From: Escherichia phage vB_Eco_SLUR75
Length of the DNA: 59,880 nucleotides
Sequence record: LR025197.1
Reading direction: 5' to 3' (one strand)
In this document: in pieces, positions 25,004 through 51,227 of the stretch
Layout: the number at the start of each line of letters is the position of its first letter
How positions within the stretch are numbered: the first letter of the stretch is position 1
The notes under the pieces: model-generated
Databases searched by the model: none
The model's input: only the letters and a program-made list of their open reading frames with translations
What the model was told of the DNA's origin: nothing
Translations under genes and position numbers: made by a program

Positions 25004-25085
25004 CGGGACTCCTTTGTGTTGTTGTCAAGGTTCAATTTTAATATACTTGTTGTGTTGAGTAAGTCAAATAAATGTGGGAGATATT

Positions 25086-28000
25086 ATGGCAACTCGTTTA
25101 CGTGGTACTTTAGTTGATGGTTTGAATAAGCCTATTATCAACGCTACAGTTGCGCTTTTAGCTAAAGGAAACAGTCTTACCGTATTATCCGGCAGCGAAG
25201 CTATCTTTAAAACAAGTGCAACCGGAACTTATGATATTACAGTCCAGACAGGTTATTACAAGGTTATTATCGGTCCACAGGGCGTAGAGCCATATAAAGC
25301 TGGTGAAATTGCTATTTACGCGGATAGTAAAGAAGGTACGCTGAATAACTATTTAACTACATGGGCACCGGAAGAGCTAACTCCGGAAGTTATTACTCAG
25401 GTAAAAGATTTGGTTGCACAAGCTGAGACAGCTAAGAACGCTTCATCCACGTCTGCTACTAAATCCGAACAGGAGCGAGTTAAAGCAGAAGCTGCTGCTA
25501 AAAAAGCGGAAGACACTGCTAATGGTATGAAAGCCTCTATTGGCTTAACTACTGCCCCAAGACATGTTGCAAATATTACAGTAGAACCTACAGCATTCTT
25601 AGGCTTCATACGAATTGTACGATCTACCACAGTCGGTTATCCAGATATAGCTTCATCAGAAAACGTATTGGCTGGTTTTATTTCTGCTATGGACGGAACC
25701 CCTGGATATGTCGGGGTATTTGTTGGTGACTTCACCGGAACTGTATACACTTATCGTTGGACTAAGAATGTTGGCGCGGTATGGTGGAAACAAGTTAACT
25801 ACTCTACTGTCAACAGATATACCCAGCTTAACGCAGAAACTAATTTTACAAACCAATTGGGTAACGCCAAACTTCTTATTGACAATAATAAAGTTTGGGG
25901 TGCTTATGATAACGACAATAAACGCTATATACCCCTTGCAATAGCTCAGGGTGGTACTGGCGCGGTAAATGTTAATGATGCTTTGGAAAACTTTGGGTTA
26001 GGTCGTAACTCCGCGCCACGTTTCAAACATCTTGATCTGGACAATGCATCAAATTCTACACAAGCAGCTTCTGGAATTCTAAACGGCTACCTCCGTGATT
26101 CTAGCGGTGTGCAAAGAACTAAGCATAGATTATATTCAGAAATTAAAAGCGATGGGAAAGCGTGGTTAACCATGCAGATCTATTCTGATGAATCTACGCA
26201 GAAGACTTTAGGTTATAACATTGACGGCGATTTCCAAATTGTACGTAATTTTATCGGGCAGTCCTTACAATTATCGGATTTAACCACAACTCATAAAAAT
26301 CTACAGATTGATAGATTTAAGCAGTTGTCCGCTGGAACAAGGGTCTACGGAGGTCCAGCCGATGAGCGATATTTTGAAGTTCATACCGGGGCCTGGGGTG
26401 TTTATAACGTAACAGAAAAGAAATGGATACCTTTAGCCATATCACAAGGTGGGACGGGAGCTGTTACAGTTGCGGACGCCAAGAAGAACCTTTTAATCCC
26501 GGACGGAGGTCTTGATTCGGCTACCCGTGTGGATAAACCCGCTGGAGCGGAAGATGCTAAGTATTATCCAATCATTATTAGCCAACCTAGCGGGTATGAT
26601 GGCACGTACCTAACAGAAATTGAAATGAGCACTCCCAGCAGAAGTGCTGCACAAAGTCCTAACTCTAACATCTTAAGAGCTTGGATTCGAAGCGCTGGAT
26701 GGAGCGATAAAGGTACTGTTGGCTTTGGGAATTTCTTTGCTTATGATAGTAAAGAGGTTGCAATTTTATGTATACGTGGCACATCTAGAGGTCAATATCC
26801 TCATAATGCTGTTTACGTAAAGGGCGATGCTTTCCCTGTTTATATTAGGAAGACTGTTGGATCCACAATTACAGTTCCCACTTCTGACTGGTCTGCAGAT
26901 CCAAATGCGTCAGATAAGTGTGTTTATAAATGGGGCATCACAGGCGATTTAGATGGTATTGGTGATGAATATGGGTGTCGAAATATACTAAACTTTGTCA
27001 AAGGTTTGAACGGATTTTATTGTAACGACTATTTCCGTGATGCTGGAGGGAATGCTTATCTTAAGGATGGGATGAATTATGGAGGTGATATAAAATTACA
27101 ACTCCGTAAATTGGAAATAAACGGTAATCTTACCGCAGGGAACGCTATAACTGCTTTCGGTCCTACTGTAGCAAATAATACATTTGTATCACAGTTAACA
27201 AATGCGGATTCTAGTCAAGCATTGCATCAAAGCGAGTTTAGAGCTGGGGAAAGCGGTGGGCAAATTGTTGTTCGGGATATGTCAGCAGTAGCCAATCATA
27301 AATTCTTTAACTTTAATCTAGACGGAAGCTTCAGTCCGCCAAACGGATTATTGTCTTCTACTGGTGTGGATTGGAACAGTCAAATTAATACCGTCAATAA
27401 GTTCTATGGAATTGCCGGACAAGTTAACTCAGCAGAAAACAATGTTGTTTACGGGGGCATTCACGTAGGTTTTAGCGGTAATTATGCATTTCAACTAGCT
27501 GGTAGAAATAACAAAGCAAGTTTTCGTACATTTGAAGCAGGCACACCTGGACCTTGGATGCGTCTTATTACTGATCAGTATGCAGACTTCAAAGTACCAA
27601 TTTTTGCTAACAAGAATGGTGAAGCTATAACCATTAAATCGACAGTAGATGACAACTCTGAATCTGGATATATCGCTGGGAGGAATAACGCTAATACCCG
27701 TTTGTGGTATATAGGGAAGTCCGGACCTCAAGAAACTGTGGTTATCCGTAATGATATGAATGGAAACCAAATACTCTTAAGGGACGGTGCAGGCGATATA
27801 AGCTTGGATACAAAAGACGGGAACAAAGTTGTATTTGCAAAAGCTTCCAACTTTAGACTTGTTAATAGTAATGGAAAATATACAAGGTTAGTAACATCAG
27901 GAAGTTCAACTCATGCAATTAGCATGGACAACTGGGGTACAAGCGCAAGACCTACTGTGTTCGAATGTAAGTATGAAGACTATAGCACTTCTGCTAACGT

Positions 28001-28472
28001 TGGTTGGATATACTACGGTCAGGTAAATACAGATGGAAGCCGAACATTTCAGGTAAACGGAACTGTCGGTTGTACTAGTGTTGTTCAAAGCTCAGACCGA
28101 GATCTTAAAGACAACATTAAGACTATTGCAGATGCAACTAAAGCATTGCGTAAAATGAATGGCTACACATATACTCTCAAGGAAGATGGTTTACCCTATG
28201 CTGGTGTAATCGCTCAAGAAGTTATGGAAGCTCTACCTGAAGCGGTTAGCAGTTTCACAAAGCATGAGTATATGGAAGGCCAAGATGGAGAAGGTAATGA
28301 TACAAGATATGATCTTGGAAAACGTTATCTTAATGTAGACTACTCCGCGGTAACTGGTCTTCTGGTTCAGGTTTGTCGTGAAGCAGATGACCGCATTACA
28401 AAACTTGAAACTGAAGTTGAGGAACTCAAAAAATTAGTTGCAACACTTGTTAATAAAGAACCACTACCATAA
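25086..28472 (+). CDS. Tail fiber with C-terminal intramolecular chaperone, peptidase S74-like (1128 aa)
   Basis: C-terminal SDRDLKDNIKTI...GYTYTLKEDG...YAGVIAQEV matches the self-cleaving chaperone motif; internal duplicated IPLAI(A/S)QGGTGAV motif. ATG at M5 of track ORF (track start 25074 is GTG). Confidence 0.8.
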   Translation: MATRLRGTLVDGLNKPIINATVALLAKGNSLTVLSGSEAIFKTSATGTYDITVQTGYYKVIIGPQGVEPYKAGEIAIYADSKEGTLNNYLTTWAPEELTPEVITQVKDLVAQAETAKNASSTSATKSEQERVKAEAAAKKAEDTANGMKASIGLTTAPRHVANITVEPTAFLGFIRIVRSTTVGYPDIASSENVLAGFISAMDGTPGYVGVFVGDFTGTVYTYRWTKNVGAVWWKQVNYSTVNRYTQLNAETNFTNQLGNAKLLIDNNKVWGAYDNDNKRYIPLAIAQGGTGAVNVNDALENFGLGRNSAPRFKHLDLDNASNSTQAASGILNGYLRDSSGVQRTKHRLYSEIKSDGKAWLTMQIYSDESTQKTLGYNIDGDFQIVRNFIGQSLQLSDLTTTHKNLQIDRFKQLSAGTRVYGGPADERYFEVHTGAWGVYNVTEKKWIPLAISQGGTGAVTVADAKKNLLIPDGGLDSATRVDKPAGAEDAKYYPIIISQPSGYDGTYLTEIEMSTPSRSAAQSPNSNILRAWIRSAGWSDKGTVGFGNFFAYDSKEVAILCIRGTSRGQYPHNAVYVKGDAFPVYIRKTVGSTITVPTSDWSADPNASDKCVYKWGITGDLDGIGDEYGCRNILNFVKGLNGFYCNDYFRDAGGNAYLKDGMNYGGDIKLQLRKLEINGNLTAGNAITAFGPTVANNTFVSQLTNADSSQALHQSEFRAGESGGQIVVRDMSAVANHKFFNFNLDGSFSPPNGLLSSTGVDWNSQINTVNKFYGIAGQVNSAENNVVYGGIHVGFSGNYAFQLAGRNNKASFRTFEAGTPGPWMRLITDQYADFKVPIFANKNGEAITIKSTVDDNSESGYIAGRNNANTRLWYIGKSGPQETVVIRNDMNGNQILLRDGAGDISLDTKDGNKVVFAKASNFRLVNSNGKYTRLVTSGSSTHAISMDNWGTSARPTVFECKYEDYSTSANVGWIYYGQVNTDGSRTFQVNGTVGCTSVVQSSDRDLKDNIKTIADATKALRKMNGYTYTLKEDGLPYAGVIAQEVMEALPEAVSSFTKHEYMEGQDGEGNDTRYDLGKRYLNVDYSAVTGLLVQVCREADDRITKLETEVEELKKLVATLVNKEPLP

Positions 28473-28488
28473 CCACATCTAACTTCCA

Positions 28489-28514
28489 CAGCGCGTCTTC
28501 GGGCGCGCTTTTTA
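28489..28514 (+). terminator. Rho-independent terminator after tail fiber gene
   Basis: AGCGCG-tcttcggg-CGCGCT hairpin followed by TTTTT. Confidence 0.6.
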
Positions 28515-28643
28515 TTGGCTGTCAATCCCAATTTACAAAATCTTTACATTTGGATCATTGTAAAAAGCATGTTAAGGGCTATGCTTTACTTCGTAACCAG
28601 TTGGTTACATCCGCTTAACAAATCCATATATGGAGATTTTCCT

Positions 28644-29351
28644 ATGTCTGACATGACTCTTTTACCTACTAATCTCGGTGGCGACGGTTTCGGTGGTGAA
28701 GCTGGTGCGGCTGGTATCGGTGGCGCGATCGGTGGCTTAATTGGTTCCTGGATCGGTAATGGTTGGGGCGGCAATGGTGGTTGGGGTGGTCGCGGTAACT
28801 TCGCTGGTCCGGTGGAAGTGCAAGCTTCTGTTGACACCAACGCAATTCTGCAAGCTATCAACAACGGTACTCTTCAGACCATTCAGGGGCAGAACGGTAC
28901 TAACCTGACTGTTGAGCGCTCCGCTGCTTCTACCTATAACGGTATTACTCAGCAGAACACTCAAAACCTGCTGGCTTCCGTTCAGGGCTTTGCTGGTCTG
29001 AACACGCAGATCCAGGGCGGCACCAGCCAAGTGCTCGCGGCTCTGTGTAACAACGAAGCAGCTAACATTACCCGCTCCTTCCAGGCTCAGTTAGAAGCTC
29101 AGAAGTGTTGCTGCGAAACCAACCTGAACATCGAGCGTCAAGCAGAAGCTACTCGTGCTCTCCTGCGCGATCAGCACGCACAAGCGCAAGCTGTTCTGAT
29201 CTGTGACCTGAAGTCCCAGTTGCAGGAAGCTCGCTTTGCAAACTCTCAGTTGGCGCAGACGGCTGGCCTTACCTGTAAAATCAATCAGGTTGAGCAGTTA
29301 GTTAACTTTAAACTGCCAACTCCTCCGACTCCTCCGACTGGCTGCTGCTAA
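28644..29351 (+). CDS. Glycine-rich protein with C-terminal Cys motifs (235 aa)
   Basis: ATG at M44 of track ORF with RBS TGGAG; N-terminal GGDGFGGEAGAAGIGGAIGGLIGSWIGNGWGGNGGWGG, Gln/Asn/Thr-rich middle, C-terminal CCCE...PTPPTPPTGCC. Confidence 0.5.
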   Translation: MSDMTLLPTNLGGDGFGGEAGAAGIGGAIGGLIGSWIGNGWGGNGGWGGRGNFAGPVEVQASVDTNAILQAINNGTLQTIQGQNGTNLTVERSAASTYNGITQQNTQNLLASVQGFAGLNTQIQGGTSQVLAALCNNEAANITRSFQAQLEAQKCCCETNLNIERQAEATRALLRDQHAQAQAVLICDLKSQLQEARFANSQLAQTAGLTCKINQVEQLVNFKLPTPPTPPTGCC

Positions 29352-29372: not shown

Positions 29373-29408
29373 AAAGCGCCTTTCGCTCCTCCGCTTGGGG
29401 CGCTTTTA
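29373..29408 (+). terminator. Putative terminator hairpin
   Basis: AAGCGCC ... GGCGCTT stem with a long loop, followed by TTTT. Confidence 0.4.
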
Positions 29409-29422
29409 ACAGAGGTAATATC

Positions 29423-29791
29423 ATGAGCCACATTAAAATCGCAACGATGGGAATACCACGGGTTAAATTGCCTAAGGTTGCTTTACCTCGCATTAGCGTA
29501 GGTGAGCACCACCATGAACACGAGAAAGAGGAATATAAACATGCTCACTCTTATGCTCGAGATCATGAACATATGGCAGCTATGTCAAATGTTCTTGACC
29601 GGATGGAAGAACCTCCGCATACGTGGGCGGCGTACCACGACAAGCCCGGCGGTATGATGTCCATTGTTGAAATGGAATACCGCGAATTAATGGAGTGTAA
29701 GAAAGAAGGCGACCGCGCAGGGATCATGAAAGAGTTGACTGATCTTGCCGCAGCTTGTACTTGCGCTCTTCAAAAAATGAAAGATATGTAA
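29423..29791 (+). CDS. His-rich protein, possible MazG-like NTP pyrophosphohydrolase (122 aa)
   Basis: GEHHHEHEKEEYKHAHSYARDHEH metal-binding-like stretch; EMEYRELME...MKELTDL resembles the ExxE...ExxD pattern of MazG/HisE proteins. Confidence 0.3.
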   Translation: MSHIKIATMGIPRVKLPKVALPRISVGEHHHEHEKEEYKHAHSYARDHEHMAAMSNVLDRMEEPPHTWAAYHDKPGGMMSIVEMEYRELMECKKEGDRAGIMKELTDLAAACTCALQKMKDM

Positions 29792-29806: not shown

Positions 29807-30337
29807 ATGCAAAACGTAAACGCAGGAATGGGCGTAACCCAGTTCAACGGGATGAAACCGAAAAACTCCATCAACATGGGCGGTGTTGATTGGACGTTAC
29901 GTCGGGACGCTACCGATTCAACTACCATGTTCCCACACCAGAAGGTGAGCTGGCTTAATGCTGGCTGTGAACCTATGGGTGATGGAAGGGTTCATTACTG
30001 TTGGATTATGGGAGTGATACCGCCTACGCCGGGCACTATCGAACGACCCGTGAATGTGATGTATGTCGGCTTCCACCAGTTCAAGATCACAATTGCTCCA
30101 AACTCCATTAGTCAGTCAGATCTTGATCGTATGCATGTTTACGTCAGCGATGGTACAGACTTCGCAGGGGATTTTATTAGTAAGTTTCTTGGTATGCAAC
30201 CAGAGCAGCCTGTAGAAGCACGCGAGCATATTAGCCCGTGGCCACCCATGATTGATCAGGAAGTGCTGCAACCAAAGACCGCTCAAACGGTCCCTCAGAA
30301 ACCGGAGCAGAAGGTGAAACCAAATGACGAAGAATGA
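29807..30337 (+). CDS. Hypothetical protein (176 aa)
   Basis: RBS-like GGAAG upstream; no recognisable motif. Confidence 0.5.
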   Translation: MQNVNAGMGVTQFNGMKPKNSINMGGVDWTLRRDATDSTTMFPHQKVSWLNAGCEPMGDGRVHYCWIMGVIPPTPGTIERPVNVMYVGFHQFKITIAPNSISQSDLDRMHVYVSDGTDFAGDFISKFLGMQPEQPVEAREHISPWPPMIDQEVLQPKTAQTVPQKPEQKVKPNDEE

Positions 30338-30608
30338 AGGTATTGATAAAGTCGTTGAAGGGCTTTCTATTCGTGCTCATGTTATAGCAGACGAAGGTCA
30401 TGATCAACTCACAATTATGAAATCTGCATTCAGCGATTTTAAGTCTCTTGGAAACTTAAGCGGGTTAATGACTGTGGTGTCGACCGGAAAATTAACCCAG
30501 CAGCAAATCAGTCTGGCTCAGCGTATTGCTGTTAAAGTTATTGCGGTACTTGGGATGATTGAAGCTGAAAAGCCCAGTTCCAAGCAGGATAACGAAAGCG
30601 ACCTTTAA
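30324..30608 (+). CDS. Hypothetical protein (94 aa)
   Basis: Overlaps upstream gene end. Confidence 0.45.
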   Translation: MTKNEGIDKVVEGLSIRAHVIADEGHDQLTIMKSAFSDFKSLGNLSGLMTVVSTGKLTQQQISLAQRIAVKVIAVLGMIEAEKPSSKQDNESDL

Positions 30609-30619
30609 GGAGGTCTACT

Positions 30620-30823
30620 ATGTGTGGTAATACTAACCGTTGCTGTCTAGGCAGTCCTGCAACACAAGCAGGTATACTTCAGGGGCAATTAGCTCAAGCA
30701 GCGTGTAATTGCAAAACTTTTCAACCAGTAGCGCCAACTCCTGTGTTTGTGAATGCTTTTGCACCGCCTGTTTTCAATACTTTTGGCGTATACCCATACG
30801 GTGCTTTCTTTCGTATATTCTAA
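30620..30823 (+). CDS. Small Cys-rich protein (67 aa)
   Basis: RBS AAGGAGG; CCLGS...CNCK cysteines; last gene of the forward arm. Confidence 0.45.
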   Translation: MCGNTNRCCLGSPATQAGILQGQLAQAACNCKTFQPVAPTPVFVNAFAPPVFNTFGVYPYGAFFRIF

Positions 30824-35599: not shown

Positions 35600-36519
35600 C
35601 AGAACAACTCCATTACACGATCACGGAATGTGCCGTCATGGGTAGCGTTAATGTTTGCAGCAATTACACCATAAGCCCATAAATTGAAGGCAGCACGTGA
35701 TTCATAGATTGTTGATAAACGTTCGTAAGTGAAACCGTTTTGCTCAAGGTATTTAAGGACAGCGTCTTGTTCAATCTCAGTTAATGTTGAAACATGCTTA
35801 CCAAAATGATGGCGGTCCGGTGACTTATCGGATACGCGCATTGGACCCCACGGAGGAGTAACCACACTTCCAAACGCTGCCGCTTGAATCCAGGAGGATG
35901 AGTCACAGCTATACCACGGGTAACGCTCCATAATGGTTGTGGACGTAATACCAAACGCATGAAGTTTAATCTTAGCACGTCCGCTACCGTCGCAAATATA
36001 TTTGTCCCACATGCGGTCAAGCCAAGTCTTAAGCGTGTCCGTGGAACGTCCTACCATACCCCCGATAGTGATATATTCGTAGTTCTTCATGTAGTATTCA
36101 AGATAGCGGAAGTCCTCCCCAAAGTGAAAGCAAGGTAACGGTTTAGCACCGCGTGCTTCCATTTCAAGTTGGTTACGGTAGGTTTGCAACGGATCACCGA
36201 TACCATCGAGCACCGACGCCATTACTGCGCCATCTTCTACGCGAAGGATGTCTTTGTTGCGCTTGATGTATTCGCAGTATTCAACAATATCAATGTGAGC
36301 ACCTAACGAGTGCGCGGAGAATGCACCGGAGTCGAGAAACACTTTAGCCCCGTCCGCACGCATTTGATCAACATACTTCTGACGCCCAACGTAGTGGTAG
36401 GATTCCAAAATATGAGGCAGATTGCGCGTGATATTTTTCTCATGCTCTGACAGCTTTTCATAACGCTGCTGGCCAGGCATATATCCGTTCGTGTAAACTG
36501 CTGCCATAAAAACGTTCAT
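35599..36519 (-). CDS. dpdA: DpdA-like 7-deazaguanine DNA transglycosylase, TGT superfamily (306 aa)
   Basis: KVFLDSGAFS motif as I recall for phage DpdA; co-located with the preQ0 synthesis genes. Confidence 0.65.
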   Translation of the reverse strand: MNVFMAAVYTNGYMPGQQRYEKLSEHEKNITRNLPHILESYHYVGRQKYVDQMRADGAKVFLDSGAFSAHSLGAHIDIVEYCEYIKRNKDILRVEDGAVMASVLDGIGDPLQTYRNQLEMEARGAKPLPCFHFGEDFRYLEYYMKNYEYITIGGMVGRSTDTLKTWLDRMWDKYICDGSGRAKIKLHAFGITSTTIMERYPWYSCDSSSWIQAAAFGSVVTPPWGPMRVSDKSPDRHHFGKHVSTLTEIEQDAVLKYLEQNGFTYERLSTIYESRAAFNLWAYGVIAANINATHDGTFRDRVMELF

Positions 36520-36749
36520 TTTTGGAACGGTCCTCCAAACTGATCAATTAGTTCTAAAGTACGCCACGCTTCATTAAATGCTTCGTCCGCTCGATGTTTA
36601 GCGTCAATAAGCTGCTGCTTTAAAACATCTGTAGGCGCGTCATTCTGTATTGCAGAGCAAGCATCCGCAGTACCTGCTTTAAGCTGGTAGAATGCTGTCT
36701 CTAAGATTAGTTGTCTTGACATATTTCCTCCAATGACTAAAAAGCCCAT
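36516..36749 (-). CDS. Hypothetical protein (77 aa)
   Basis: ATGA-type overlap with dpdA start. Confidence 0.45.
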   Translation of the reverse strand: MGFLVIGGNMSRQLILETAFYQLKAGTADACSAIQNDAPTDVLKQQLIDAKHRADEAFNEAWRTLELIDQFGGPFQK

Positions 36750-36793
36750 ATCAGTATTATGACCGATATGGGCTTGATCTGTAAAGCTATCTA

Positions 36794-37435
36794 TTATTTA
36801 CAAGCTTCGAGAAACTCCCGGCGCCATTCTTTGCCAATATCGCTACCATGCCACAGTTCTGTAGCGCCCCGGAACGCTTTGGTAATAGTAGAGCTGCCGC
36901 ATACCTGCTTAACACCGCGCGACTCCATGCACATATGCTTGGCGTCAATATAAACACATACAGCTTTCGGGTTTAAATGCTCCTGAATAGCGTCTGCAAT
37001 CTGGTTAGTAAGACGTTCCTGAACTTGCAGTCGACGACTAAAAGCATCCACAACGCGAGACAGCTTACTAAGCCCAACAATCTTCCCATTGGGGACATAA
37101 CCAACAACAGCATGACCGATGATAGGAGCCATGTGATGCTCACAATGACTGTATACAGGAATATCACGGACAATGACCATTTCATTGGTGTTTTCCGCCC
37201 CATCCTCAAAGGTTTTAAACAGACCAGCGATATCTACATCGTAACCGCTAAACCATGTAGCATAAGCTTTAGCGACACGGTCTGGAGTCTCTGCTAATCC
37301 TGGACGTAATTCAATGCAATCTTCAATCTGAGTTAGTAAAGTATGCACCGCGCGAGCAATACGGAATTGAGTACCTTCGTTATCAATAGTAAATTTTGGC
37401 ATGGTTTGCAGTTTCCTTGTTGTTAATGTGGTCAT
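36794..37435 (-). CDS. folE: GTP cyclohydrolase I (213 aa)
   Basis: [20 protein letters not shown] and RLQVQERLT motifs match E. coli FolE. Confidence 0.9.
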
Positions 37436-37436
37436 A

Positions 37437-37973
37437 TTACAGGCTATAGTTTACGTGACATTTCGAAGTTTCTTCGATGGTGCATTCTACAAGTTGAACA
37501 CCATGTTCGTCAAGCAGTTGCGGACCAATCACGTCAACCATATATGCAGCTAAGTTTTCCGCAGTTGGGTTGAATGGTAAAGCTACCAATGAGCTTAAGA
37601 AATGCTCATGGTCTTCATGTTCCAGAGGACAACTCGGGCGACTTGCTGCAATTTTCAAAGCGTCAATCAAATTATCACGATTCCAATGCAGGAACTTATG
37701 ATCCCAATTATCTTCCAGCCACTGGCAGAGCGTAGTTTTAACCACACTAAAGTCGATAACTCGGCCCACATGGTCCAGCTTAGCTCGCTCTTTTACTTCG
37801 ACGTTGACAAGACCTCCGCCCATTTCAATTGGTACTTCTTTAACTGTTTCTTTCGGCGCAACCTTAAAGTGAAACTTATAGTTGTGACCGTGAAGGTGAC
37901 GACACTTGCTTTCATGCCCTACAACACGATGTCCAGCGCAAATTTCATGTGAACGAATTACTGTATAACTCAT
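37437..37973 (-). CDS. queD: 6-carboxy-5,6,7,8-tetrahydropterin synthase (178 aa)
   Basis: [22 protein letters not shown] (CxxH...C..HGH zinc/catalytic motif). Confidence 0.85.
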
Positions 37974-38560
37974 TTTAATACCTCTTTAGACTGTTCAATT
38001 TCTAACGCACGCTGCGCCGACGCAATAATGTCTTTCAAATCTTCTACCACATGCTTATGACCGCGTTCGCCAGGCTGCAACGCCTTTTTAATCAAATGTT
38101 GTAAAGCTGGGTTAGTTGTCTTCCAAGCTTCCAAGACATCATACACGTCCACGATGCATTTTACAACATTCCCATTTTGATCTTTACCATAAATAACTTT
38201 CTGATATTTATTCATGGGAATTTTAGACGGTTCGTATTTCGTAAAAACCGCACCATTAAATGTATTACTTATGCTTATTCCAGAAGAAGGTTGATTGTAC
38301 AATCCGGAGCGAGTGTTTTCGCTAGCCTGTTTGACGTAATCATCCGCAACGATATAGCGCCAGGCTATAATATCTTGAACTTTATAAGGGCTATTTTCAT
38401 CCATAGCTGAACGCCCTTCCATAGCCCAATCCCATCCATGTAATAGATTCTTAACGTGTGTGCCGTTGCGCAAACGAACTTCAAACTTCTCATTACGAAG
38501 AAAAATAGGCATTCCTTTACCGTCGTGTTGGTGCCAAATTTTATTCAAATTATCTTTCAT
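37970..38560 (-). CDS. Hypothetical protein inside the 7-deazaguanine cluster (196 aa)
   Basis: First ATG (M16) of track ORF, which begins with TTG; 2 nt after upstream stop. No QueF motif or other signature. Confidence 0.5.
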   Translation of the reverse strand: MKDNLNKIWHQHDGKGMPIFLRNEKFEVRLRNGTHVKNLLHGWDWAMEGRSAMDENSPYKVQDIIAWRYIVADDYVKQASENTRSGLYNQPSSGISISNTFNGAVFTKYEPSKIPMNKYQKVIYGKDQNGNVVKCIVDVYDVLEAWKTTNPALQHLIKKALQPGERGHKHVVEDLKDIIASAQRALEIEQSKEVLK

Positions 38561-38562
38561 TT

Positions 38563-39042
38563 TTACGCTCTCGCTGTACGTGAATGAACTTCGTAAACAA
38601 CCCAAAGGATAGCAGACGCTGTGAACTTACTTAAGCTCATTGCTACCATCGATCCCGGATTAACAATACCTATAATACTTAAGAACACAATGGAGTCAAT
38701 TGGTACAGCTACCAAAGAGCTGATAAATACTCGTTGATGGAAAGGCTTCTTGGTGACCGTGTATACTACATAGTCCGCAAACTCACTAAGCGCAAAAGAC
38801 GCAACGGATGCAACTACAACCGCAGGATTACCGAACACCCAGCTAAGGATGCAACCAACAATCATTGCAGGGATGACGCCTTTGCCAGCGTTACGCTGTG
38901 CGTAATCACGCAGAACAAAGATAATGCCTACAAAGAAAGCCATCATGGGGACTACGCCAAGTGGCGTATTAAGCATCGGAAGGTAGGAAAAGCCCAGGTT
39001 TACGAATGTAATTGCAGCCAGATAAGCAACGATAAATTTCAT
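38563..39042 (-). CDS. Integral membrane protein, possible queuosine-precursor transporter (159 aa)
   Basis: Four to five predicted TM helices; located between queC and queD. Transporter assignment is inference from context only. Confidence 0.3.
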   Translation of the reverse strand: MKFIVAYLAAITFVNLGFSYLPMLNTPLGVVPMMAFFVGIIFVLRDYAQRNAGKGVIPAMIVGCILSWVFGNPAVVVASVASFALSEFADYVVYTVTKKPFHQRVFISSLVAVPIDSIVFLSIIGIVNPGSMVAMSLSKFTASAILWVVYEVHSRTARA

Positions 39043-39162
39043 ACTTTTGTTCTCCAGTTTTAACAGCGTTATTCGCTGGTTGTTGGGTTTAAAAGCTTTA
39101 GTAGTATAGTTGGGTTACCGCACCCTAAACAATGCGCTAGCGGTGCGGTTTTCGCGGTAAGA

Positions 39163-39870
39163 TCAAGCTTTGCTAATAAATTCGCTGTACCCTTTAGCAC
39201 GAAGTTTACACGCTGGACATTCCCCGCAACCGTATCCCCAGTCATGCAGAGTACGACGGACGCCATTATAGCACGTATGGGACTGCTCAATTACTGTGGT
39301 TAAGAAACCAACCTTATCCGCCAGCTCAAACGTTTCCGCTTTGTTTAAACGCATAAGCGGAGTAACAAAATGGATATCTGTTTCATATCCAACGTTTAAG
39401 GTAGCTTCAAGTAGATCTACAAACTGCTGACGGCAATCCGGATAACCGCTATAGTCCGTTTCACAAACGCCTGTAACCACATATCGAGCTCCAACCTTCT
39501 GCGCGTAGGCGTGCGCGGTAGTCAGGAAAAGAGCATTACGGTTTGGCACAAAGCTTGCCGGAAGGTTGTTGTGCTGTTCGTGATGTTCGTTAACATCACC
39601 TTCATTCCCGATTAAAGCACTATTGCCGATCTGTTTCAAAGCAGGTAATTCAAAGACAACAAACGGGACATTGTGCTCTTTACAAATTTGATTAGCACAA
39701 GCCAGCTCAATGTTATGACGTTGACCGTATGCAAAACCGATAGCGTAGACTTTGTCATAGTTATTAAGTGCAAGACCTAGACAAGTCACGCTGTCCTGGC
39801 CGCCAGACAGGACGACAACGGCGGAGTTATGATTTTTTACAGGGAATACCAGTTTATCTAATTTATTCAT
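39163..39870 (-). CDS. queC: 7-cyano-7-deazaguanine (preQ0) synthase (235 aa)
   Basis: PP-loop VVLSGGQDS, GVCETDYSGYPDCR, C-terminal Cys cluster CYNG...GCGECPACKLR; aligns with E. coli QueC. Confidence 0.9.
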   Translation of the reverse strand: MNKLDKLVFPVKNHNSAVVVLSGGQDSVTCLGLALNNYDKVYAIGFAYGQRHNIELACANQICKEHNVPFVVFELPALKQIGNSALIGNEGDVNEHHEQHNNLPASFVPNRNALFLTTAHAYAQKVGARYVVTGVCETDYSGYPDCRQQFVDLLEATLNVGYETDIHFVTPLMRLNKAETFELADKVGFLTTVIEQSHTCYNGVRRTLHDWGYGCGECPACKLRAKGYSEFISKA

Positions 39871-40075
39871 TTACTTCACCTTTAATATCACAAGGGTTAA
39901 TTGTTACGTTAGACATTACAATTGGGTGATTACGCGCTCCAATTGTGCTAACGTAATTAATATCTAATTCTACATGCACGCCCTGCATAGTAGCATGGGC
40001 AATTGAAGAATTAAGTTTTTCTACCAGCTCAGTGATCATTTCCTGATGCTGTTTCGCTTCTTCCAAAGTGATCAT
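39863..40075 (-). CDS. Hypothetical protein (70 aa)
   Basis: Overlaps queC start by 8 nt. Confidence 0.45.
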   Translation of the reverse strand: MITLEEAKQHQEMITELVEKLNSSIAHATMQGVHVELDINYVSTIGARNHPIVMSNVTINPCDIKGEVNE

Positions 40076-40330
40076 TTAAACCTCCGTTAATGTTTGAGTC
40101 CAGTCTAAGCCTTCAAGATCTACATCAGCTATTTCATCGTACTCGTAAGCTTCCGGATCTGCTGGCAACCATCTATCAAAGCGATGGCTAAGTTCTGGAG
40201 GAATTGCTTCATATCCCCAAACCTTCCCATCCTTGTCGGCTGCCAGATAATCAACTCGACTTGGAACGGTTAAAGTGACACCACAAAAATTAACATCTTT
40301 AGTATGCACAACCTGGCTTAACACACGCAT
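40076..40330 (-). CDS. Small protein, paralog family member C (84 aa)
   Basis: YLAADKDGKVWGYEAIP and GLDWTQTLTEV motifs shared with paralogs A and B. Confidence 0.55.
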   Translation of the reverse strand: MRVLSQVVHTKDVNFCGVTLTVPSRVDYLAADKDGKVWGYEAIPPELSHRFDRWLPADPEAYEYDEIADVDLEGLDWTQTLTEV

Positions 40331-41037
40331 TATTCCACTCCGATATATTTGTGAACCTGAAGCTGCAACGTGTAACCGTGTTTCATACAGCTTTGGACAA
40401 CGGCTTGGATATTACTGTGGTTAAGGTCTTCATCCTGCTCGTCCATTGGCTGTAAATATATCTTACCCTTGAAACCCTTCGGAGGTCTAGCGATAAATGG
40501 CGTAGCTTGATGATCTAATGCTTGAAGAGGTAAACCATCTTCCACGTTTACACAGCACGCTTTAAGTACATATTTAAATGCATTAGCGCGGCGCAGCACA
40601 GAAGGATGAATCTTTGAGGTCTTGGGACTACATACAATTACAGGTAACTGGGAAAAGTTCTTAGGTAAAGGCATAGACCCATTAGTTTCAATTTGCACCA
40701 AATAGCCGCGCGATAACAGTTGTTCAATAAACGGGTTAATTTGCTGACGGAACGGTTCACCCCCAGTGATAACCACAAGTGAGGTGCTATTACCTGATTC
40801 CAGCTTACGGCTTTCGATTAAACGCATAATATCGACAATATGATAAAGACTACGACCAACAGTATAATCGGTATCACAGCCAGGGCATTGCAGATTACAC
40901 CCAGCAAGACGCACAAATACAGCAGGTTGGCCGCAGAATGGACCTTCACCCTGAATGGTAGAGAATACCGAATGCACGTCTAAATACATATCGTTTTCTT
41001 TAGAACGGGACTCGGGAGCTTGTTGATTAATATTCAT
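40330..41037 (-). CDS. queE: 7-carboxy-7-deazaguanine synthase, radical SAM (235 aa)
   Basis: FSTIQGEGPFCGQPAVFVRLAGCNLQCPGCDTDY aligns with E. coli QueE; strong RBS GAGGA before the ATG. Confidence 0.85.
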   Translation of the reverse strand: MNINQQAPESRSKENDMYLDVHSVFSTIQGEGPFCGQPAVFVRLAGCNLQCPGCDTDYTVGRSLYHIVDIMRLIESRKLESGNSTSLVVITGGEPFRQQINPFIEQLLSRGYLVQIETNGSMPLPKNFSQLPVIVCSPKTSKIHPSVLRRANAFKYVLKACCVNVEDGLPLQALDHQATPFIARPPKGFKGKIYLQPMDEQDEDLNHSNIQAVVQSCMKHGYTLQLQVHKYIGVE

Positions 41038-50570: not shown

Positions 50571-51227
50571 CTATTTCAAATAGCGGGAAGTCATAATTGG
50601 ATGCAAAGACACTTCTTCCTCAGATGTAACCACATTGGTGGCAGGTACAAAGTTGTTGGACTTCTTGTCTCCAACTTTCCACCCTTTACCGTTACCCTTT
50701 TTAAGTTCACCCGTGCCAGTGGACCCGAAGCCGTTGGCACCGCGCTCAGTGCTCTTAAGCTCGTCCACTTCTACCAGTTGCACGCTGGGTAGCTTAATAA
50801 GCATAGCTTGCGCAATGCGATCACCATGATTGACAGTAAAACTACCATCGTTATCAATAGTAATCTTAACCTTAAGTTCCCCAGTGTAGTCGCTATCAAT
50901 GACGCCCACGCAGTTTGCCAGACGCACGTCGTTTTTGAATCCGTGTCCGCTACGGGAATAGAGCATAAGCGCGTAACCTTCAGGAATATCAAACGCTAAC
51001 CCTGTGCGGAATATGTGTTCATAAGAGAAAATGATTTGTTCACAACCTTCTTCACTCTTAAGGTCCGCGTGCAGGTCAAAGCAAGCTGCCCCAGCACTGG
51101 CAAACGATGGCAGGATTGCGGTGTCTGTTAAGCGTTTTACCCCGAGAAGAGTTGGCGCAAAGGATGTAGCAGTTATGCTAGAATTAGTCATAGAAATAGT
51201 GTGCATGTTATTTAATACGTCAGTCAT
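50571..51227 (-). CDS. dut: dUTP diphosphatase with N-terminal extension (218 aa)
   Basis: dUTPase motifs AGAACFDLHA and CVGVIDSDYTGELKV. Confidence 0.75.
   Translation of the reverse strand: MTDVLNNMHTISMTNSSITATSFAPTLLGVKRLTDTAILPSFASAGAACFDLHADLKSEEGCEQIIFSYEHIFRTGLAFDIPEGYALMLYSRSGHGFKNDVRLANCVGVIDSDYTGELKVKITIDNDGSFTVNHGDRIAQAMLIKLPSVQLVEVDELKSTERGANGFGSTGTGELKKGNGKGWKVGDKKSNNFVPATNVVTSEEEVSLHPIMTSRYLK

Follow-up and report, generated by a model that had tools for sequence, protein, structure and literature searches.

A histidine-tailed protein with a probable MazG/HisE-type core, encoded in a conserved four-gene cassette of Escherichia phage vB_Eco_SLUR75

Gene B and its homologues

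The window analysed here, a stretch of 59,880 nucleotides from Escherichia phage vB_Eco_SLUR75 (sequence record LR025197.1), carries on its plus strand a small gene, hereafter gene B, which is the second member of a four-gene cassette A-B-C-D. The coding sequence extends from ATG to TAA (29423..29791, stop codon included), encodes 122 amino acids and is preceded by a Shine-Dalgarno-like AGAGG, read from the sequence, 7 nt 5' of the start codon (29411..29415, plus strand). The product is a histidine-tailed protein with a probable MazG fold. It begins with a semi-conserved hydrophobic and basic peptide (residues 1-26, MSHIKIATMGIPRVKLPKVALPRISV; 29423..29500) that has a predicted local distance difference test score (pLDDT) below 50 in the AlphaFold2 (AF2) model. 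A low-complexity tail rich in His, Asp and Glu and predicted to be disordered follows (residues 27-50; 29501..29572), and then an all-alpha core resembling MazG and the archaeal protein AF_0060 (residues 48-121; 29564..29785), which was delimited by AF2, Foldseek, a profile match to the AF_0060 structure 2p06 and hhalign. Within the core lie the loop motif P-P-x-T-W-x-x-Y (residues 64-71; 29612..29635) and the two halves of a putative metal-binding tetrad, E85-Y-R-E88 (29675..29686) and E104-L-T-D107 (29732..29743).

The window is a Seuratvirus genome (Queuovirinae) of the CAjan/Greed type; over the 2.2 kb around gene B it shares 99.3% identity with Escherichia phage Greed and 98.5% with CAjan. 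The protein is matched over its full length by phrog_9157 ("unknown function", E=1.3e-60). A set of 41 close homologues can be aligned from residue 1 (alignment A1), tblastn found homologues in 113 phage records, again aligned from the first residue, and an exhaustive profile search yielded 146 representative clusters at 50% identity. Gene B is a real and widely conserved gene. Most records leave its function unnamed; three independent GenBank submissions (SeppeHuegi, KurtStettler and JLBYU09) label it "putative pyrophosphatase", so that a pyrophosphatase call is not new.

An earlier sequence-only reading of this DNA had singled out a His-rich string, GEHHHEHEKEEYKHAHSYARDHEH, and two acidic strings, EMEYRELME and MKELTDL. 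All of them are present in the reading frame: the first occupies residues 27-50 with 8 His in 24 positions, and the others occupy residues 83-91 and 102-108, where they supply E85-x-x-E88 and, 15 residues further on, E104-x-x-D107. The His-rich string is the most His-dense 24-residue stretch over all six frames of the window; the probability of at least 8 His in 24 residues is 3.4e-8 per window at the background of 2.24% His in the window's long open reading frames.

That density is among the observations which make it practically negligible that the frame is a chance or non-functional one with a coincidental motif match. Such a view could appeal to the single-sequence database matches, all of which lie below threshold, and to the profile of alignment A1, which retrieved from the PDB just a weak and unrelated match to PA2G4 (E ~0.03). 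This match was treated as chance because its significance dropped to E ~0.7 with a broader profile. Against a chance frame stand the preservation of gene B from end to end across several phage families, a core that AF2 models with confidence, and a match to AF_0060 that holds against reversed and shuffled controls. The conservation data rule the chance-frame reading out.

Relationship to the MazG/HisE superfamily

The sequence-only reading had proposed that the acidic strings of the C-terminal region fit the ExxE...ExxD arrangement of the all-alpha MazG/HisE nucleoside triphosphate (NTP) pyrophosphohydrolases. The evidence for a relationship comes from a diverse profile, A2, built from 144 members of the gene B family with a mean column identity of only 11%; the residue counts given below refer to this alignment. 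Searched against the PDB, profile A2 matched AF_0060 of Archaeoglobus fulgidus (2p06_A) across the whole domain with E=9.5e-5. The alignment pairs PPxTW of the family with NTPRPW, MEYxEL with EEMDEL and KELxHLAAAC with DELLDVANFC, which places E85-Y-R-E88 on the E-E-M-D-E segment of AF_0060. The latter lies above the Pfam cut-offs of both MazG (30.3 bits, cut-off 22) and PRA-PH (22.3 bits, cut-off 21.3). When profile A2 was compared with an alignment of the AF_0060 family, hhalign returned a probability of 95.4% (E=1.9e-8, score 47.3, 70 columns), whereas reversing the template lowered the score to 10.4 and none of 30 column-shuffled templates exceeded 22.3. The link emerged only from the diverse profile: with the narrow profile A1 the hhalign match to AF_0060 was weak (6% probability), and a phmmer search of the PDB with the gene B protein alone gave just a spurious cycloisomerase match, partly on the His-tag of that entry. 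Pfam scans of the 144 relatives one by one produced PRA-PH matches in 15 members and MazG matches in 7, all of them sub-threshold (best E=3.4e-4); the next families were matched by at most 4 members.

Structural comparison pointed in the same direction, although none of its matches was significant. In the AF2 model residues 1-47 are disordered, with pLDDT mostly below 50, and the core has pLDDT values of 85-96. Helices are predicted at 48-62, 66-70, 77-95 and 98-121, so that the core consists of three long helices. The first 13 rows of a Foldseek search against the PDB were all MazG, PRA-PH, AF_0060 or HISN2 structures with probabilities of 0.84-0.95. Top matches comprised 2yxh (MazG-related, Thermotoga), the PRA-PH structures 2a7w and 1yvw, 7yh5 (Mycobacterium tuberculosis MazG), 2p06 and HISN2. 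For a core of three long helices every E-value in this search was at least 0.27 and TM-scores ranged from 0.3 to 0.6; AF_0060 reached the best target-normalised TM-score among the matches to the MazG superfamily (0.62). In BFVD the best match outside the gene B family came from a mycobacteriophage, whose protein is labelled a MazG-like nucleotide pyrophosphohydrolase (E=0.12 at a probability of 1.00), and other NTP-pyrophosphohydrolase entries ranked behind it.

Because the profile match to AF_0060, the hhalign result with its failing controls, the Foldseek ranking and the recurrent sub-threshold PRA-PH and MazG matches agree, homology is supported, and residues 48-121 very probably form a divergent MazG/HisE superfamily domain. 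The gene B protein is an outlying, AF_0060-like three-helix member that curated models miss. The sequence-only reading has thus gained ground on this relationship, and the superfamily similarity on which it depended was found. The comparison with hidden Markov models that it had proposed turned out in two ways: the family profile matches AF_0060, whereas the single protein remains below the Pfam cut-off.

Candidate metal site

The Mg2+ ligands of M. tuberculosis MazG are Glu119, Glu122, Glu138 and Asp141 (PMC10014863). The gene B protein has equivalents of all four ligands in register (M84-E85-x-x-E88, 15 residues, E104-x-x-D107), and the 3/16/3 spacing of E85, E88, E104 and D107 is identical to that of the mycobacterial enzyme. 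E85 is conserved in 142 and E88 in 137 of the 144 relatives, while E104 is found in 106 and replaced by Asn in 25. Position 107 always holds a potential metal ligand, namely His in 101, Asp in 39 and Glu in 4 sequences. The most frequent tetrads are EEEH (64), EEED (35, including the gene B protein) and EENH (24).

Outside the tetrad, the loop before helix 2 is nearly invariant (P65 in 140, W68 in 142, Y71 in 124 and T67 in 123 of the sequences), as are M84, A92 and A111. In the predicted fold this P-x-T-W-x-x-Y loop adjoins the acidic cluster. In the predicted secondary structure the two long helices flank a turn at residues 96-97; if they pair as an antiparallel hairpin, E88 would face positions 104/105 and E85 would face positions 107/108.

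The relatives divide into two clades: in the ExxD clade (39 sequences) the N-terminal tails are rich in His, and in the ExxH clade (101 sequences) they are ordinary. This division may mark a change of metal or of function, or it may reflect phylogeny alone.

The N-terminal tail

Among the relatives, both the length and the sequence of the N-terminal 47 residues differ, although distant homologues of gene B also begin with M-[KR] followed by hydrophobic residues. Tails in the D107 clade contain 17% His on average; 26 of the 39 have at least 15% His, and 21 carry a run of three or more His, with the longest runs reaching, for example, HHHHHYHHGHH. The tails of H107 relatives average 4% His. It is the composition of the tail, not its sequence, that is maintained in the D107 clade. 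The association of His-rich tails with D107 may be due to phylogeny alone; judged from composition, the pattern plausibly fits a capture of metal.

The A-B-C-D cassette

Gene A (28644..29351, plus strand, phrog_9288) encodes a protein of 235 amino acids with a Gly-rich N-terminus (GFGG...GNGWGGNGGWGG), a helical middle part rich in Gln and Asn, and Cys clusters (CCC and a C-terminal GCC). Gene C (29807..30337, plus strand, phrog_8329) encodes a beta-rich protein of 176 amino acids and lies directly 3' of gene B in nearly all loci, just as gene A lies directly 5' of it in nearly all loci, distant ones included. Gene D (30324..30608, plus strand, phrog_7239; 94 amino acids) overlaps the end of gene C by 14 nt. 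It is kept after gene C in enterobacterial phages, and open reading frames of like size and overlap follow gene C in distant loci. Across phages the protein at the position of gene D measures 60-95 amino acids and protein C about 175.

The order A-B-C-D recurs in Seuratvirus, Nonagvirus, Drexlerviridae (Hanrivervirus and Tlsvirus), Eiauvirus, Yersinia phage PY100 and Nonanavirus PJ16. In distant IMG/VR and ENA contigs, where protein B is 25-30% identical, phmmer searches of the open reading frames of the fetched loci recovered gene A upstream and/or gene C downstream of gene B, which always is the second gene of the cassette. In the window the cassette follows the lateral tail fibre gene (25074..28472, plus strand; Pfam phage_tail_N and Peptidase_S74; "lateral tail fiber protein" in SeppeHuegi), and in most of the distant contigs it stands directly 3' of a tail-fibre or tailspike-like gene. 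The cassette is conserved, and its usual place is just after such a gene. A strict coupling as a rule was rejected because PY100 and PJ16 carry the cassette away from fibre genes: in PY100 it forms an isolated plus-strand island with early genes around it, and in PJ16 it comes after the large terminase. A lysis cassette was likewise rejected, since the genes for endolysin, holin and spanins lie in other parts of the genome.

A terminator-like hairpin follows the tail fibre gene (28490..28509). Between genes A and B lies a further hairpin (29373..29406, plus strand) with a 10-bp stem and a subsequent UUUU, a possible partial terminator or attenuator. Its centroid energy is -16.3 kcal/mol, a folding energy that is not unusual (z = -1.0), and the same element is annotated as a rho-independent terminator in phage SA80RD. 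If the hairpin is functional, the level of gene A could exceed that of genes B-D. Downstream of gene D, gene E (30620..30823, plus strand, phrog_25697) encodes a Cys-rich protein of 67 amino acids (MCGNTNRCCLGS...CNC...) without a family or structural match in our searches. Among the loci compared, only those of Seuratvirus and of a few relatives (two related contigs) contained it. It is followed by a bidirectional terminator-like site ahead of the convergent replication genes.

The other cassette proteins gave few functional clues. The AF2 model of protein C (pLDDT 76) revealed no recognisable fold in a Foldseek search of the PDB, with probabilities of at most 0.35, and neither a profile of its homologues nor proteins A and D had a match in the PDB. 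PADLOC and NCBIfam contained no match to the cassette proteins. The N-terminus of protein A, GGDGFGGEAGAAGIGGAIGGLIGSWIGNGWGGNGGWGG, is kept even in distant phages. Its labels conflict between records, being "putative sugar-binding protein" for a part of the protein in JakobBernoulli and "lateral tail fiber chaperone" in PJ16; moreover, the region 28515-29351 is annotated as two coding sequences in SeppeHuegi, yet the frame is open throughout in the window. T5-like Salmonella phages possess an A-like segment alone, devoid of the rest of the cassette, after a fibre gene. With a C-terminal intramolecular chaperone domain of its own (Peptidase_S74, residues 1007-1058), the lateral tail fibre probably needs no separate folding chaperone, which weakens the chaperone label for protein A.

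A fibre-like protein of 1468 amino acids gave 17 separate matches to the gene B family profile, all at profile positions 35-68 (the variable tail and helix 1); they are probably a compositional or repeat artefact.

Independence from the deazaguanine and dUTPase genes

The sequence-only reading had further proposed that a pyrophosphatase encoded by gene B could sanitise or shape the pool of deoxynucleoside triphosphates (dNTPs) alongside dUTPase and the deazaguanine pathway. The window indeed encodes DpdA, FolE, QueD, QueC and QueE (35602-41037) and a dUTPase (50577-51227), and the membership of the gene B protein in the MazG superfamily would suit a house-cleaning enzyme of this kind. All six genes are, however, on the minus strand, at least 5.8 kb from gene B and in a different transcription unit. 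Drexlerviridae also possess gene B homologues within this cassette. Edwardsiella phage eiAU carries the cassette as well, and its complete genome yielded no tblastn match (E<=1e-3) to DpdA, FolE, QueD, QueC, QueE or the dUTPase of the window. For CAjan it has been proposed that DpdA inserts preQ0 into DNA, most likely by base exchange (PMC6884629); with such a route no modified dNTP pool needs shaping. Strand and distance, the Drexlerviridae homologues and the eiAU cassette leave the proposed link unsupported. Gene B is independent of the deazaguanine genes, and we regard a house-cleaning dNTP pyrophosphatase working with dUTPase and the 7-deazaguanine pathway as very improbable.

As proteins, DpdA, QueC and QueE share 98-99.7% identity with their counterparts in SeppeHuegi, whereas FolE (86%), QueD (70%) and dUTPase (64%) diverge (window 36797-37973 and 50577-51227). 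This suggests a mosaic replacement of single genes in the deazaguanine cluster and of the dUTPase gene.

Possible function of the gene B protein

The reading that we favour, and to which we give an even chance as a whole, is that the gene B product is a nucleotide pyrophosphohydrolase with a minimal MazG fold and a dependence on divalent metal, that its His tail helps to capture metal and that it acts together with the cassette late in infection. Residues 48-121 would adopt a minimal three-helix version of the all-alpha NTP-pyrophosphohydrolase fold, with AF_0060 as closest relative. In the antiparallel pair of helices 77-95 and 98-121, E85 and E88 would be positioned opposite E104 and D107 in the register of the Mg2+ tetrad. 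The protein may oligomerise as small MazG proteins do, the tetrad would bind at least one divalent cation, and the alpha-beta phosphoanhydride bond of some nucleoside triphosphate would be hydrolysed. Within the disordered residues 1-47, the stretch rich in His, Asp and Glu most likely captures or buffers divalent metal for the tetrad site. Because the cassette usually stands directly after a receptor-binding-protein gene, the activity probably serves the cassette late in infection and not general dNTP housekeeping. This reading is favoured by the near-invariance of E85 and E88 in a family with so low a mean column identity.

Several observations weigh against it. The protein on its own reached 16.0 bits against PRA-PH in Pfam (PF01503; cut-off 21.3, E=0.016), the Pfam MazG family (PF03819) was not reported and no NCBIfam model matched; outside the gene B family all Foldseek E-values exceeded 0.1. 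The closest structural relative offers little help, as the PDB entry of AF_0060 bears no functional name ("hypothetical protein / predicted coding region") and hence gives no clue to a substrate of the gene B protein. At the candidate site, Met84 takes the place of the leading Glu of the canonical EExxE, and Met stands at this position in 136 of the 144 relatives. The domain does not contain the fourth, C-terminal helix of larger MazG proteins, and thereby misses the helix that bears phosphate-binding Lys and Arg residues in larger members. In Campylobacter jejuni dUTPase the basic residues holding the triphosphate are Lys175, Arg182 and Lys194 (PMC10014863). No basic residue is conserved family-wide among the 144 sequences; Arg occupies position 60 in 27, and Lys occupies position 93 in 48 and position 103 in 45. 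His at position 107 in most relatives and Asn at position 104 in others are easier to reconcile with an altered metal site or with a role outside catalysis than with a standard Mg-dependent NTPase. Finally, the neighbours of gene B are tail genes and genes without assigned function, not genes of nucleotide metabolism. Catalysis by the gene B protein is a tentative proposal to which we assign slightly less than an even chance.

The main rival holds that the protein has kept the MazG fold but not the catalysis, and serves the cassette as a metal-binding adaptor, assembly factor or scaffold; for example, a transition metal taken up by the His tail and kept at the E/E/E/(D or H) site might be passed on to a tail appendage or to protein A with its many Cys residues. 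We consider this somewhat unlikely. The prevalence of ExxH over ExxD and the absence of conserved phosphate-binding basic residues would be accommodated by it, as would the strict synteny with genes A, C and D across very distant phages, usually after tail-fibre or tailspike genes. The conserved short hydrophobic stretch at the N-terminus could dock on a partner, and the Cys content of protein A and its designation as a fibre chaperone in one record are in line with this view. An enzyme site would, however, lead one to expect just such a nearly invariant pair as E85 and E88, which keep the exact register of MazG, and the intramolecular chaperone of the upstream fibre, the position of the cassette away from fibre genes in PY100 and PJ16, and a protein C model devoid of functional clues all speak against it, as does the lack of evidence that cassette proteins are part of the virion or bind protein B. 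A wider version of this thought, that the cassette is an undescribed module attached to receptor-binding-protein genes across unrelated tailed phages, in which a MazG fold was diverted from nucleotide house-cleaning and recruited as a metal-loaded enzyme or chaperone, fed by the His tail and with an ExxE/ExxH site, that builds or arms the Gly/Cys-rich appendage protein A, appears unlikely to us. Another view, in which the gene B product acts in host takeover or counter-defence by hydrolysing, in the manner of MazG, a regulatory or signalling nucleotide, for instance (p)ppGpp or a second messenger of immunity, would agree with the superfamily of the protein and with the self-contained islands in PY100 and PJ16, as accessory modules often form such islands. 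Phage MazG has been implicated in the hydrolysis of "magic spot" nucleotides, but a cyanophage MazG is reported to leave them unhydrolysed (PMC6850273). Given also that no cassette protein had a PADLOC or other defence-related match, that gene B lies where the late tail operon ends, which speaks against early takeover, and that the gene B sequence carries no substrate clue, this role seems improbable. The metal-dependent pyrophosphohydrolase remains the reading that we prefer.

Significance

A probable fold and a candidate active site can now be assigned to phrog_9157, which is listed as unknown in PHROGs although the family is present in well-used collections such as the BASEL phages, CAjan, and the 9g-like and T1-like phages. 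An attractive but unsupported tie of gene B to deazaguanine DNA modification is corrected at the same time. In the literature that was searched we found no mention of the profile link to AF_0060, of the ExxD/ExxH split with its His-rich tails or of the four-gene cassette beside receptor-binding-protein genes, and searches for gene B, "lateral tail fiber chaperone" and His-rich MazG proteins returned nothing relevant.

More interesting is the context, i.e. four genes that travel together in phages as far apart as enterobacterial siphophages and remote metagenomic ones. It is a minority possibility that they constitute a new tail-associated system. If the cassette is a fibre-associated assembly or arming system, it would be relevant to the host-range engineering of therapeutic phages, and the building or arming of an appendage by the cassette would be the first link of a MazG fold to the biology of the virion or the adsorption apparatus. 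If gene B merely encodes a late nucleotide hydrolase, the MazG superfamily gains one further divergent branch with this family.

Comparison with known systems

The metallochaperones HypB, UreE, SlyD and Hpn possess His-rich tails. By analogy, the gene B protein resembles them in a disordered stretch that is conserved in its His-rich composition and attached to a putatively metal-using folded domain. There is no sequence relationship to these proteins; the tail of the gene B family is confined to the D107 clade, and nothing in these data points to Ni, Zn or any other metal.

The MazG/HisE (PRA-PH) enzymes, for example M. tuberculosis MazG, share with the gene B protein, as modelled, the all-alpha fold and also an acidic tetrad of identical spacing (PMC10014863). 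They differ in having Glu where the gene B protein has Met in EExxE, a C-terminal helix and conserved basic residues, whereas the gene B family mostly has ExxH and obtains sub-threshold Pfam scores.

Known phage MazG-like proteins are products of auxiliary nucleotide-metabolism genes. Those of cyanophages and mycobacteriophages are small phage-encoded proteins of the MazG fold, as the gene B product probably is, and the best match that the gene B protein has in BFVD outside its own family is to a MazG-like protein from Mycobacterium phage MalagasyRose. Unlike the gene B protein, they are recognised by standard models, while the gene B family is distinguished by the His tail and by its fixed place in a cassette beside tail genes. 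For a cyanophage MazG, pyrophosphohydrolase activity has been demonstrated (PMC6850273).

AF_0060 (2p06) is archaeal and cellular, lies above the Pfam MazG cut-off, has a full E-E-x-x-E and carries no His-rich N-terminal tail, in all of which it differs from the gene B protein. In its architecture it is the closest counterpart: like the modelled core of the gene B protein it comprises about 85-90 residues, with a first helix, a P-x-(P/T)-W loop, a second helix bearing ExxE, a third helix bearing ExxD and no fourth helix.

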